Shown in pieces: positions 16,601-19,600 of a stretch of DNA of 52,790 bases. Position 1 is the stretch's first letter. The number at the start of each line of letters is the position of its first letter. Made by a program: the position numbers. The DNA is taken from positions 1 through 52,790 of the IMG/VR virus record IMGVR_UViG_2534681742_000008; one strand, 5' to 3'. This stretch comes from a virus (taxonomy: Duplodnaviria; Heunggongvirae; Uroviricota; Caudoviricetes).

Positions 16601-19600
16601 GGGAGGCTGCTTAATGGCTAACCTACGCAAAGAAGCACGCGGCAGAGAATGCCAGGTACGTATTTACGGCGTATGCAATGGCAACCCTGAAACTACAGTT
16701 CTGGCACATTACCGGATGGCTGGAATTTGCGGAACGGGAATGAAGCCTGACGACCTGATCGGCGCATGGGCTTGTAGTGACTGCCACGCGGAGATCGACC
16801 GACGCACCCATAACCTCGACAACAAAGACGCCAGACTTTACCACCTCGAAGGCGTGATCAGGACGCAGGCGATACTGCTGAAGGAGGGGAAGATTAAGCC
16901 ATGAACGAATATCAGTTTGTGCTTCCATACCCACCGTCGCTGAATACCTACTGGCGAAGACGGGGAAGCCAATACTACATCAGCGATAAAGGCCAGAAAT
17001 ACCGAAAAGACGTTCAGCAAATCATCCGCCAACTTAAGTTAGACATTTTCACCAAATCACGACTCCGCATCAAAGTCATCGCAGACGTTCCAGACTCCCG
17101 CCGCCGCGACCTCGACAACATCCTGAAAGGTTTACTCGACTCCCTTATCCACGCCGGATTTGCGGAAGACGACGAGCAATTCGATGACATTCGCGTAATT
17201 CGTGGTGTGAAAGTACCAGGCGGACGGCTTGGAATAAAAATCACCGAACTGGAGAACGTATGAACGCCACAATTCAAACGATACCAGAGCTTCTTATCCA
17301 GACACGAGGCAATCAGACCGAAGTGGCTAGGATGCTTTCCTGCGCAAGAGGAACAGTGCTTAAGTACAACCGAGACAGCAAAGGTGAGCGTCACATAATA
17401 GTTAACGGCGTCCTGATGGTCAAACAGGGCAAAAGGGGAAGGCCATGAGACTCGAAAGCGTAGCTAAATTTCATTCGCCAAAAAGCCCGATGATGAGCGA
17501 CTCACCACGGGCCACGGCTTCTGACTCTCTTTCCGGTACTGATGTGATGGCTGCTATGGGGATGGCGCAATCACAAGCCGGATTCGGTATGGCTGCATTC
17601 TGCGGTAAGCATGAACTCAGCCAGAACGACAAACAAAAGGCTATCAACTATCTGATGCAATTTGCACACAAGGTATCGGGGAAATACCGTGGTGTGGCAA
17701 AGCTTGAAGGAAATACTAAGGCAAAGGTACTGCAAGTGCTCGCAACATTCGCTTATGCGGATTATTGCCGTAGTGCCGCGACGCCGGGCGCAAGATGCAG
17801 AGATTGCCACGGTACAGGCCGTGCGGTTGATATAGCAAAAACAGAGCAGTGGGGGAGAGTTGTTGAGAAAGAATGCGGAAGATGCAAAGGTGTCGGCTAT
17901 TCAAGGATGCCAGCAAGCGCAGCATATCGCGCTGTGACGATGCTAATCCCAAACCTTACCCAACCCACCTGGTCACGCACTGTTAAGCCGCTGTATGACG
18001 CTCTGGTGGTGCAATGCCACAAGGAAGAGTCAATCGCAGACAACATTTTGAACGCGGTCACACGTTAGCAGCATGATTGCCACGGATGGCAACATATTAA
18101 CGGCATAATATTGACTTTTTGAATAAAGTTGGGTAAATTTGACTCAACGATGGATAAATGCACTCGTTAAATAAAGCCCTGAGTTAATAGCTCGGGGCTT
18201 TTTGCGTTTTAATCACGACCTTTCTGAAAGCACATCAAACCAAATACCAGACAGACAAAAATAATCACCTTATCCGCTGTGGCTACGGTGCGGTGTGCTT
18301 TGCATAAAAGAAAACCAGCGCAATGGCTGGCTTCGTGAAAGTGGGTGGCAAGAAGTTGTTGTCGATTAAAAATAAATACAAGGAGTAGCTTATGCTAAGC
18401 GAAACAGCGAAAGATATCGCAGGATATGAAGGTAAATACTCCGTAACTACTGATGGCCGCGTTTATTCTCATTCGAGAGTTGATGCTCGTGGAAGGTTAC
18501 AGAAGGGCAGATGGCTTAAGCCTGTTAATCATAGTGATGGTTACTTGTATGTAAATCTCCGCGACAAAGGAGCACTTAAAAAACATTACATTCACAGGTT
18601 AGTGGCGGCTGCATTCATTGATAATCCAAACTCGCTTCCGCAGGTAAACCACATAAATGGAATCAAGTCTGACAACAGAGTAGATAATCTTGAGTGGGTT
18701 ACTGGCTGCCAGAATATGGTCCATGCAAGCAAGTCAGGATTGCTAAACCCAATCAGTGGTGAGCGTCACTATTGTGCAAAACTCACTACTGAGCAAGTGA
18801 AAGAAATACGTGCGTGCAAATCAATGTCACAGCGTGAAATGGCGAGAATGTACGGCGTATCAAAAGCAACAATTGCAGGAATTCTTAACTATAAGACATG
18901 GGTTATTTATTAACTAATTAATTAAGAGCTCCCATTACAGGATGCATTTATGAGTGCATCCATTAATGGTCGTTAAATGCGATTGATATGGATACTGCGC
19001 AAACAGTATCCCTAATGGTCTCCTCGCGAAAACTGTGACGAGCAAACAGCGTTACCGCAAAATGTAGCCTGGATTTGTTCTATCAGTAATCGACCTTATT
19101 CCTAATTAAATAGAGCAAATCCCCTTATTGGGGGTAAGACATGAAGATGCCAGAAAAACATGACCTGTTAGCCGCCATTCTCGCGGCAAAGGAACAAGGC
19201 ATCGGGGCAATCCTTGCGTTTGCAATGGCGTACCTTCGCGGCAGATATAATGGCGGTGCGTTTACAAAAACAGTAATCGACGCAACGATGTGCGCCATTA
19301 TCGCCTGGTTCATTCGTGACCTTCTCGACTTCGCCGGACTAAGTAGCAATCTCGCTTATATAACGAGCGTGTTCATCGGCTACATCGGTACTGACTCGAT
19401 TGGTTCGCTTATCAAACGCTTCGCTGCTAAAAAAGCCGGAGTAGAAGATGGTGGAAATCAATAATCAACGTAAGGCGTTCCTCGATATGCTGGCGTGGTC
19501 AGAGGGAACTGATAACGGACGTCAGAAAACAAGAAATCATGGTTATGACGTCATTGTTGGCGGAGAGCTATTCACTGATTACTCCGATCACCCTCGCAAA

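Follow-up and report, generated by a model that had tools for sequence, protein, structure and literature searches.

Among the systems described so far, the closest to the gene considered here is I-HmuI, the endonuclease of the DNA-polymerase intron of Bacillus phage SPO1 (PDB 1U3E). The enzyme combines an N-terminal beta-sheet NUMOD4 region, an HNH beta-beta-alpha-metal fold and a C-terminal helix-turn-helix (HTH), all of which are shared by the protein encoded in the window (the whole stretch of 52,790 nucleotides of DNA that was analysed), and its catalytic His and two Asn residues align with those of the window protein. However, the two proteins are 28% identical, and D74 of I-HmuI is an Asn in the window protein. 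Their genetic settings also differ: I-HmuI is from a virulent Gram-positive phage, where a group I intron inside a coding gene encodes it, whereas the window phage is temperate and enterobacterial, and its gene is free-standing, intron-less and placed in a non-coding leader.

The precedent for a free-standing gene of this kind comes from T4, for which promoter-less HNH cassettes, nicking, intronless homing and co-conversion have been described (PMC2988022). Like the window cassette, those of MobA and MobE are promoter-less and intergenic, are read within a polycistronic message that starts at a host promoter upstream and occur sporadically among relatives, and nicking with co-conversion of flanking markers is an expected further likeness (PMC2988022). 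T4 is, however, another type of phage, and MobA and MobE have another C-terminal DNA-binding region. The window cassette sits in a regulatory leader RNA and not between two coding genes, and it carries at its 3' end a complete copy of the RNA structure that it interrupts, whereas the T4 cassettes are described with downstream-gene promoters or hairpins that sequester a ribosome-binding site (RBS).

Two other kinds of late-region genes can be compared with it. As described in PMC6266700, stx in Stx phages and other cargo that lambdoid phages carry between Q/pR' and their lysis genes occupy the same zone and likewise need pR' and Q antitermination for expression. Such cargo is directed at the host and in many cases brings promoters of its own, whereas the window cassette, which encodes a DNA endonuclease, shows the population signature of a selfish element. 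HNH proteins near siphophage late genes can be terminase cofactors, as described in PMC12967558. The window gene shares with the HK97 gp74 type the HNH motif and a late-operon site, but it is located away from the terminase, is not conserved among relatives and has another domain architecture.

We suggest, with a probability of about 0.8, that the locus is a free-standing, promoter-less homing-endonuclease cassette in the untranslated late-operon leader of a P22-like prophage. The gene alone is one more free-standing homing endonuclease of the I-HmuI type, which is a known kind; the new detail is that the cassette has its own folded copy of the leader RNA that it interrupts. No description of the cassette was found in the literature.

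The late-operon leader and the boundaries of the insertion

The source phage is, by annotation and taxonomy, a P22-like (Lederbergvirus) prophage of E. coli. The region from Q to S has the following features.

17445-18068, + strand: Q antiterminator gene (Pfam Antiterm, 1.3e-57), the left flank
18111-18139, + strand: late promoter pR' with qut (TTGACT-17-TAAATT)
18173-18201, + strand: tR' intrinsic terminator, a 13-bp stem followed by a T-run
18311-18358, + strand: truncated native leader structure, composed of hairpin A (18311-18334), a linker and the left arm of hairpin B
18347-19047, + strand: co-inherited unit, the cassette as defined by block identity (701 bp; 97.3-97.4% identical to loci L010 and L011)
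18359-18391, + strand: cassette 5' UTR, with the Shine-Dalgarno sequence AAGGAG at 18380-18385
18392-18913, + strand: probable HNH homing-endonuclease gene (NUMOD4, HNH_3 and HTH; I-HmuI-like)
18914-18926, + strand: A+T-rich spacer from the stop codon of the ORF to the RNA element, TAA-CTAATTAATTAAG, as read from the sequence
18921-19049, + strand: structured 3' element of 129 nt, the 'type X' copy of the native leader (covariation, folding and conservation)
19064-19140, + strand: native lambda-type pre-S leader, the right flank (106 of 107 positions identical to HK140)
19141-19464, + strand: holin gene S (Pfam Phage_holin_3_1, 2.4e-30), the first native late gene past the cassette

An earlier note on this DNA had described the flanks as lambda-like on both sides. 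This holds for Q and pR'/qut on the left (window 17445-18168 against lambda 43886-44609, 97.5% identity) and for the pre-S leader, S and the start of R on the right (19064-19555 against lambda 45109-45600, 99.0%), but the leader from tR' to the insert (18169-18358) is of the HK022/HK140 type, with 283 of 290 positions identical to HK140, and differs from lambda's own, longer leader. The homology to HK140 runs to 18358 and stops there, and the left arm of hairpin B ends at this same left junction of the insertion.

For the pR' sequence of the window, the annotation is PR'/qut in HK140 and P late in P22, and the P22 site homologous to the window tR' is annotated as 't late or tR''. The promoter is presumed to be the source of the transcript carrying the endonuclease gene, and since the gene lies downstream of tR', its expression should need Q antitermination. 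A consensus scan of the + strand found no promoter-like or terminator-like sites beyond pR' and tR' in 18000-19200, and neither a moron-type promoter between tR' and the ATG nor such a terminator between the stop codon and S. The gene is thus on the same strand as pR', downstream of tR' and without a promoter-like site of its own, in agreement with the earlier expectation that it would be transcribed with the late genes.

The empty sites of HK140, HK022, lambda and P22 align with both flanks of the insert. The boundaries were taken from pairwise global alignments; MAFFT applied to the whole intergenic region misplaced the HK140 ends. Alignment of the Q-S region, proposed earlier as the way to define these boundaries, placed an insertion there, but it is not a bare ORF: it consists of 636 bp (18359-18994), followed by a colinear diverged tract of about 50-70 nt which is 44-60% identical to HEG-less leaders and shows no length change. 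In the 52 nt on the right side of the insertion point, cassette types share 75-98% identity with one another versus 44-60% with native leaders. The 636-bp insertion with its colinear diverged tract describes the change better than a replacement of 66 bp by 705 bp, a reading that was considered and rejected. Local alignment of the 66-69 bp 'unique' segment of the empty site with the whole insert was no better than with shuffled controls, and the homology of empty site and insert becomes clear only through anchored multiple alignment, covariance-model alignment and comparison at fixed distance.

The cassette 5' UTR is common to types A-C, and its core, AAGGAGTAGCT, is kept also in type D and in a 56% homologue at another locus; the RBS of the endonuclease gene is strong. 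The spacer behind the ORF reads AATTAATTAAG in types A-C and AATTAAG in type D, the form in type B being AATTAATTAAT. From the end of the ORF to the start of S there are 227 nt.

The encoded protein

The coordinates given previously for the ORF on the + strand are exact, and it starts with ATG and encodes 173 aa. Its assignment as NUMOD4/HNH_3 with a C-terminal HTH was confirmed. The Pfam domain NUMOD4 (PF07463) covers residues 7-57 (E=9e-12, 45.5 bits against a cut-off of 23.4) and HNH_3 covers residues 65-109 (E=1.3e-8, above the cut-off), whereas HTH_3 at residues 137-169 (E=2.4e-4) scores 21.5 bits, slightly below its cut-off of 23 bits. We nevertheless accept the HTH, because the AlphaFold model (pLDDT 90.6) contains three C-terminal helices at 133-165 (pLDDT 90-95) and a Foldseek search against the PDB matched I-HmuI (1U3E) over the full length (2.8e-8, 175 aligned columns), which was the sole significant match. 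The protein also matched PHROG 517 'HTH DNA binding' (4e-6). The HNH region of the model is composed of strand 84-87, strand 100-103 and helix 105-115. I-HmuI was likewise the sole significant match in a sequence search of the PDB (1U3E, E=7e-11), and further matches were obtained to PHROG 59 'HNH endonuclease' (6e-58) and PADLOC 'HEase' (2.5e-21); NCBIfam has no model for the protein. Public records label it 'HNH endonuclease', 'HNH homing endonuclease' or 'NUMOD4 domain-containing protein'. In the literature, no nuclease activity, target site or biased inheritance is reported for the protein or any close relative.

The architecture bears on whether the protein might assist the terminase in packaging, as an HNH protein of the HK97 gp74 type. 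Siphophage HNH proteins encoded close to late genes can act as terminase cofactors, and the window gene, too, encodes an HNH protein beside late genes. However, the small terminase ORF (terS, 21467) is about 2.5 kb downstream, with the lysis cassette and two further ORFs in between, and the large terminase is of the PBSX family in a phage that annotation and taxonomy class as P22-like. Moreover, NUMOD4 and HTH give the protein an I-HmuI-like architecture and not that of a bare HNH protein, and the gene is missing from almost all close relatives, a presence/absence pattern that effectively refutes a packaging role; we give it next to no credence. A reading as a defence system was rejected alongside it.

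Loss of the catalytic His and Asn residues, the change which the earlier note had named as speaking against an endonuclease, was looked for in the alignment and none was found. H68, N86, H87, N99, N108 and H111 are invariant in 66 homologues with identities down to 39%, and H87, N99 and N108 align with H75, N87 and N96 of I-HmuI. N86 stands where I-HmuI has the metal ligand D74; as it is invariant in the family, it is probably functional. In every comparison between cassette types, dN/dS is 0.14-0.33, over dS values from 0.3 to more than 1, and the endonuclease gene is under purifying selection.

These results weigh on the possibility that the gene is an inactive relic, that is, a dead homing endonuclease which persists since its removal would harm leader or holin expression. 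The two truncated copies, both with the 3' element retained, would agree with such a relic, and in the T4 precedents host regulatory signals embedded in the cassette favour retention (PMC2988022). However, the window copy is full length and has every invariant residue of the family, the dN/dS values are low, and the ORF is full length in 27 of the 29 leader loci examined, so that a relic is very improbable.

The structured RNA element at the 3' end of the cassette

The earlier view of the insertion as a bare ORF was correct as to the ORF but overlooked another part of the cassette, a conserved and structured element on its 3' side. The element is composed of helix H1 (18927-18974), hairpin H3 (18987-19014) and an enclosing helix of 18979-18986 with 19021-19027, and the type X leader sequence reads TCCTCGCGA...ACGAGCAAAC. 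RNAalifold, applied to 7 distinct indel-free sequences, predicted 37 pairs, of which 5 show compensatory changes; 96.9% of the cells are paired versus 34-48% in slid controls, and the folding z-score is -4.0. Because pairing reaches 96.9% on the + strand versus 90.3% on the - strand, and 20 cells are G-U on the + strand, an RNA of the + strand is favoured over a palindromic protein operator; a DNA-level role appears the less probable of the two.

Between cassette types, the JC distance of the element is 0.14-0.26 versus a dS of 0.3-1.9 for the gene, and the element changes at about the slow pace of the protein's non-synonymous sites. The element was found only with the gene and the gene is always accompanied by the element, the truncated copies included. 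A small peptide ORF within the element was considered and dropped, because the ORFs seen by eye span only 3-16 codons and the substitutions that distinguish the types fall in stems, where they compensate each other in pairs.

A covariance model built from the element matches native leaders, and the native leader itself folds as an extended hairpin (z = -3.85 for HK140 and -2.85 for P22). The insertion splits the native late-leader hairpin structure, and the 3' element repeats that structure in full in a diverged form; the distance from the hairpin-B loop to the start codon of S, 134 nt, is the same in lambda and HK140. That the empty site is a structured hairpin is a point absent from the earlier note. 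The native leaders of lambda, P22 and HK140 had only chance-level matches in Rfam, far below the gathering scores, and no known ribozyme, intron, riboswitch or sRNA was recognised by Rfam at the window locus or in the native leaders; with group I and II introns included, no family matched 18000-19300 at E<=1. The ORF is not inside an intron or intein and lies in the untranslated leader between Q and S. The conservation and covariation of the element and its resemblance to the native leader suggest that it may help to keep the leader functional.

Distribution and mode of spread

The full insert is present in 6 of 5,426 complete E. coli genomes and the leader in 1,672, so that about 0.3% of E. 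coli leaders are occupied. Occupied and empty leaders are otherwise 98-99% identical, and there is one fixed site. In the phage collection, 2 of the 177 records that match the leader cover most of the query, and Salmonella phage 29485 is a third phage record with a more diverged copy; N7, ST-35 and 29485 are the only phage records with the cassette. The cluster P0008 is found on at least 1,000 contigs, and the cassette appears to be much commoner in Salmonella. Neither a scan with the protein pattern, in which no relative was confirmed, nor one for the 24-nt motif of the element detected the cassette among the GTDB species representatives, and it is apparently absent from these genomes. A highly efficient drive would not be expected to leave the cassette so rare in E. 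coli.

In IMG/VR, 29 loci carry the gene, 27 in full length and two truncated (a stop at codon 101 is found in L033 and L034). The holin gene immediately behind it is lambda S, P22 gene 13, one of the 29485 type or a fourth kind, and several unrelated Q genes are found upstream of the endonuclease gene. Related copies at the same leader position have 63-98% aa identity and are combined with at least three holin types. Compared with L010 and L011, the window is 97.3-97.4% identical in the cassette, versus 51-71% in the 150 bp upstream and 82-83% in the 420 bp downstream; compared with L017, the values are 76.9% for the cassette and 81.5% downstream. The history of the cassette (5' UTR, ORF and 129-nt element) is decoupled from that of both flanks. 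The 56% homologue, with the same RBS, comes from another lambdoid phage, where it is found between the lysis genes and terS.

Lambdoid genomes are well known for their mosaicism, and ordinary homologous recombination could therefore have transferred a 0.7-kb block without the nuclease. The cassette would then be a passenger, a 'moron-like' block whose nuclease is kept for some other benefit to the phage, for instance through degradation or exclusion of the DNA of rival phages or prophages late in infection. In favour of this, the types of Q, holin and lysin around the site are freely exchanged by recombination, the cassette is uncommon among E. coli genomes, and purifying selection over dS > 1 has lasted longer than a classic invade-and-decay cycle, which fits a retained function; marker exclusion is also known for the related I-HmuI/I-HmuII (PMC2988022). 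However, tight block boundaries (97% versus 51-82%), a strictly linked diverged flank and degenerate copies are typical of homing elements, and no partner or immunity gene travels with the cassette. Since one and the same activity can lead both to homing and to exclusion by cleavage, a passenger is not cleanly separable from a homing element; as an explanation in its own right we consider it unlikely.

The interpretation as a free-standing homing endonuclease in the late leader, already put forward in the earlier note, is supported by the I-HmuI-like protein, the presence/absence polymorphism, the decoupling from the flanks and the degenerate copies. We further infer nicking, a target site and a spread that depends on the nuclease and is not due to ordinary lambdoid recombination. 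The gene would be transcribed only upon Q antitermination at tR', that is, late in the lytic cycle, when phage genomes are abundant. The protein would bind an asymmetric site in leaders that lack the gene; the most economical guess for this target is the conserved hairpin-B region across the insertion point, with GGGTGGCAxGAG to its left and ACTGCGCTAACAG to its right. As a monomer with a single HNH, like I-HmuI, MobA and MobE, it would nick one strand, and repair from a co-infecting or co-resident genome bearing the cassette would copy the cassette and a short flanking tract to the recipient, so that intronless homing with co-conversion may be the route of spread. A genome with the cassette would be immune to its own nuclease, because the insertion parts the halves of the site and the adjacent tract has diverged. 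The 3' element would re-create the complete leader structure at its native distance from the holin start, in which case the insertion would be of little cost to the phage.

It is also conceivable, although we lean against it, that the cassette acts as an 'intron for a non-coding RNA', which targets the conserved leader hairpin of lambdoid phages and offsets the damage by bringing a complete, co-evolving 3' replacement placed at exactly the native distance from the holin start. If so, the native 110-nt leader structure, which in lambda spans about 44,984-45,094 and is absent from Rfam, would be functional in late or lysis gene expression, and homing endonucleases could target the DNA of conserved RNA structures as they do conserved coding sites.

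For the lambdoid phages, the locus offers a tractable temperate-phage system for nick-induced intronless homing and marker exclusion, with the lambda, HK022 and P22 leaders as empty sites and N7 as the donor; the lysogen SWYH.B349aT also bears the cassette. The leader between Q and S can lodge a selfish element, beyond host-directed cargo such as stx, and the co-inherited structured RNA points to an undescribed conserved late-leader structure upstream of the holin gene.

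Endonuclease gene and late-leader setting

The earlier note placed a homing endonuclease gene between pR'/Q and the lysis cassette, and the ORF lies exactly there. The features of the region are as follows.

17445-18068: Q, upstream of the endonuclease ORF (Pfam Antiterm, 1e-57)
18111-18139, + strand: pR' (consensus scan)
18173-18201, + strand: tR' (consensus scan)
18380-18385, + strand: AAGGAG ahead of the endonuclease ORF
18392-18913, + strand: endonuclease ORF, 173 aa, ATG start
18921-19049, + strand: structured 3' element, 129 nt, after the stop-codon spacer
19141-19464: holin S, downstream of the endonuclease ORF
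19448-19924: lysin ORF, downstream, without a Pfam match of its own; HK140 and N7 have a lambda-type lysin gene with 98-99% identity to it
Downstream of the endonuclease ORF, in the lysis cassette: Rz

The host element is a P22-like prophage beside a tRNA-Arg gene, between intS and yfdC. The lambda-like character ascribed to the flanks holds for 17445-18168 (97.5% identical to lambda 43886-44609) and 19064-19555 (99.0% identical to lambda 45109-45600), but the leader at 18169-18358 is not lambda's own; it is of the short type seen in HK022 and HK140 (283/290 identical to HK140). Consensus scans up to 19200 found no further + strand promoter-like or terminator-like site besides pR' and tR', and the endonuclease would be expressed solely from Q-antiterminated pR' transcripts. 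The promoter-less HNH cassettes of T4, which have the same design, are transcribed from upstream promoters; their enzymes nick, and intronless homing, co-conversion or marker exclusion has been described (PMC2988022). A minus-strand terminator-like hairpin with a T-run (GAAGCCAGCCATTGCGCTGGTTTT CTTTTATGCA) lies at 18311-18334, where it coincides with the leader's hairpin A, and HK140 has it too; it could block antisense transcription arriving from the lysis side.

NUMOD4 (residues 7-57, 45.5 bits) and HNH_3 (65-109, 34.8 bits) exceed the curated Pfam cut-offs, and the protein matches PHROG 59 'HNH endonuclease' (6e-58) and the PADLOC 'homing endonuclease' model (2.5e-21). HTH_3 (137-169, 21.5 bits) falls slightly under its cut-off, yet the C-terminal HTH read by the earlier note is supported by structure: the AlphaFold model (mean pLDDT 90.6, from an alignment of 66 homologues) shows strands at the N-terminus, a beta-beta-alpha unit (84-115) and, C-terminally, three helices (133-165), and its sole significant Foldseek match in the PDB is a full-length alignment to 1U3E (E=2.8e-8). 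This structure, the homing endonuclease I-HmuI, is also the closest solved relative by sequence (E=7e-11). The catalytic His/Asn residues, whose loss would have spoken against an endonuclease, are kept: H87, N99 and N108 align with I-HmuI H75, N87 and N96, while N86 takes the place of D74, and G22, Y51, H68, N86, H87, G90, N99, E101, W102, N108 and H111 are invariant among the 66 homologues, whose identity goes down to 39%. The protein belongs to a very large family (tblastn matches in 2,819 phage records), and the gene is already labelled HNH or homing endonuclease in public records. Between cassette sequence types, dN/dS is 0.14-0.33 over dS of 0.3 to >1; the protein has therefore long been kept functional. 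This, with the intact ORF, makes it very improbable that the gene is a dead relic. An A+T-rich run of overlapping stop codons (TAACTAATTAATTAAG, 18911-18926) closes the ORF immediately before the structured element; it is kept in types A-C and shorter in type D.

Distribution and insertion boundaries

Phage N7 has the whole 1,072-bp Q-to-S interval (99.3%), as does Salmonella phage ST-35 in diverged form, for which P22 is the corresponding empty site; the match in phage 29485 spans 69% of the interval. In about 170 further phage records only the two ends are matched (about 34% of the query), as pieces about 433 bp apart. The leader is present in 1,672 of 5,426 complete E. coli genomes, the insert in only 6. 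An IMG/VR scan for the gene gave 33 loci, 29 of them at the same leader position (27 full-length and 2 truncated genes), with at least four endonuclease sequence types (97-100%, 90%, 70% and 63% aa). These are preceded by several unrelated Q genes and followed by lambda S/R, P22 13/19, a 29485-type holin or a fourth holin.

The cassette is inherited as a block decoupled from its flanks. Between the window and the IMG/VR loci L010 and L011, 18347-19047 is 97.3-97.4% identical, the 150 bp upstream 51-71% and the 420 bp downstream 82-83%, whereas L017 shows the opposite pattern (block 76.9%, downstream 81.5%). Two IMG/VR prophage contigs (L033:2009-2311, L034:2501-2803) carry a type-D gene with a premature stop at codon 101 and an intact 129-nt element. 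More distant homologues occupy other intergenic sites in lambdoid or P22-like late operons: one of 56% aa (L036:2501-3028), with the same AAGGAGTAGCT RBS, separates terS from the lysis genes in another lambdoid phage, and one of 46% aa (L069:2501-3085) lies among P22-like head and tail genes, between head-completion and tail-accessory genes. Taken together, distribution, block inheritance, decayed copies and other-site homologues are what is expected of a free-standing homing endonuclease gene, and we assign this reading, which the earlier note had also reached, a probability of about 0.8. The position and the presence/absence pattern also argue against a terminase cofactor, a role that we consider barely credible.

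The Q-S alignment proposed earlier sets the boundaries; the conserved 129-nt 3' element had not been seen in the earlier note. HK140 homology ends at 18358 and restarts at 19064. Anchored alignments show colinearity with the native leader starting at the loop motif CTGCGCAAACAG (18995-19006). The holin ATG follows this motif at a distance of 134 nt in lambda, HK140 and the window alike, and of 132 nt in both L010 and P22, which leaves 18359-18994 (636 bp) as the inserted DNA. The 52 nt to its right have native length and are 75-98% identical among cassette-bearing loci, but only 44-60% identical to lambda, HK140 or P22. The left junction is common to all cassette types, which suggests one founding event followed by spread; in type D and in locus L015, about 45 bp were secondarily lost at this junction.

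Other small genes were seen nearby. L022 has an extra small ORF (MLTLKTINSDKD..., ~65 aa) downstream of tR' and ahead of the endonuclease gene (about 2190-2390), and the 56% homologue is followed by a small ORF whose N-terminus (MLTIKFVYKE...) is similar (L036:3146-3385); they may represent another small cargo gene frequenting the same spots. A different stable hairpin comes after the L036 homologue. Over window positions 15757-20521, the sibling E. coli prophage L007 (strain SWYH.B349aT) shares 98.5% identity. A GIY-YIG nuclease gene (L007:22631-23116) lies between its Rz and small terminase genes; in the window, an unrelated ORF of 126 aa (20738-21118) occupies this place. Here the same late operon may have a second hot spot for insertions of the homing-endonuclease type.

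Structured 3' element and native leaders

In the phage collection and IMG/VR, the element is present whenever the gene is, and none was seen without it: all three of the 50,697 phage-collection records with the element have the gene, as do 27/27 IMG/VR contigs with its 24-nt motif. Its seven distinct versions show no indels, and JC distances between cassette types are 0.14-0.26, against 0.3-1.9 at the gene's synonymous sites. RNAalifold gives three helices with 37 pairs, five showing compensatory changes (0-1 in slid-partner controls); 96.9% of cells are paired, against 34-48% in these controls. The window's copy folds with z = -4.0, and G-U pairs favour the + strand, the late-mRNA sense (96.9% paired vs 90.3%).

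In lambdoid late leaders lacking the gene, a segment of ~110 nt is structured and conserved; it lies 130 nt ahead of the holin start.

L041:1185-1295: native structured segment, lambda (about 44,984-45,094)
L001:1436-1542: native structured segment, HK140
L005:1056-1165: native structured segment, P22

Native leaders fold as an extended hairpin (z = -3.85 and -2.85), with GTTTTG after the inner hairpin in lambda and HK140; they matched no Rfam family, and no described function was found for the segment. A 51-aa 'hypothetical protein' annotated in the empty HK140 leader (HK140_065, L001:1427-1582) overlaps it and is probably not a real gene. A covariance model built from the seven element sequences alone matches native leaders end to end (P22 28.4 bits, lambda 24.6, HK140 23.0; rough E-values 1e-7 to 1e-5), with the hairpins aligned to each other, and likewise the linker (UCGUxAAAxGCGxxGG) and the tail (ACGxxCAAAC). 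The cassette locus therefore holds a truncated local copy of the leader structure and a complete, diverged one (type X), in the order truncated local structure (18311-18358), 5' UTR, endonuclease gene, type X copy and local pre-holin leader.

The 12-nt stem-loop core of hairpin B, the hairpin split by the insertion, occurs in both orientations as exact reverse complements (window 18995-19006; L017:1728-1739; native L175 and L164): CTGCGCAAACAG in type A and CTGTTTGCGCAG in type C, with the two forms CTGCGTCAACAG and CTGTTGACGCAG among native leaders. Such sequences suggest that the loop may have flipped via the palindrome.

Proposed spread of the cassette

The literature search turned up no publication that describes the cassette, its place in the leader or the RNA element; we regard the cassette as having one mildly unusual feature. 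We somewhat favour a nuclease that still actively drives spread of the cassette, over the unlikely alternative of one retained without drive for its use in competition or exclusion. I-HmuI, MobA and MobE suggest by analogy that the enzyme would be a monomeric nickase, and its predicted target is within or close to the conserved hairpin where the insertion sits. The cassette would be copied by recombinational repair with short co-conversion; in the occupied allele, we propose, the split site and the diverged tract next to it would confer immunity. More tentatively, the 3' RNA element may replace the native leader structure, in which case it would preserve that structure's contribution to expression of the downstream lysis genes.
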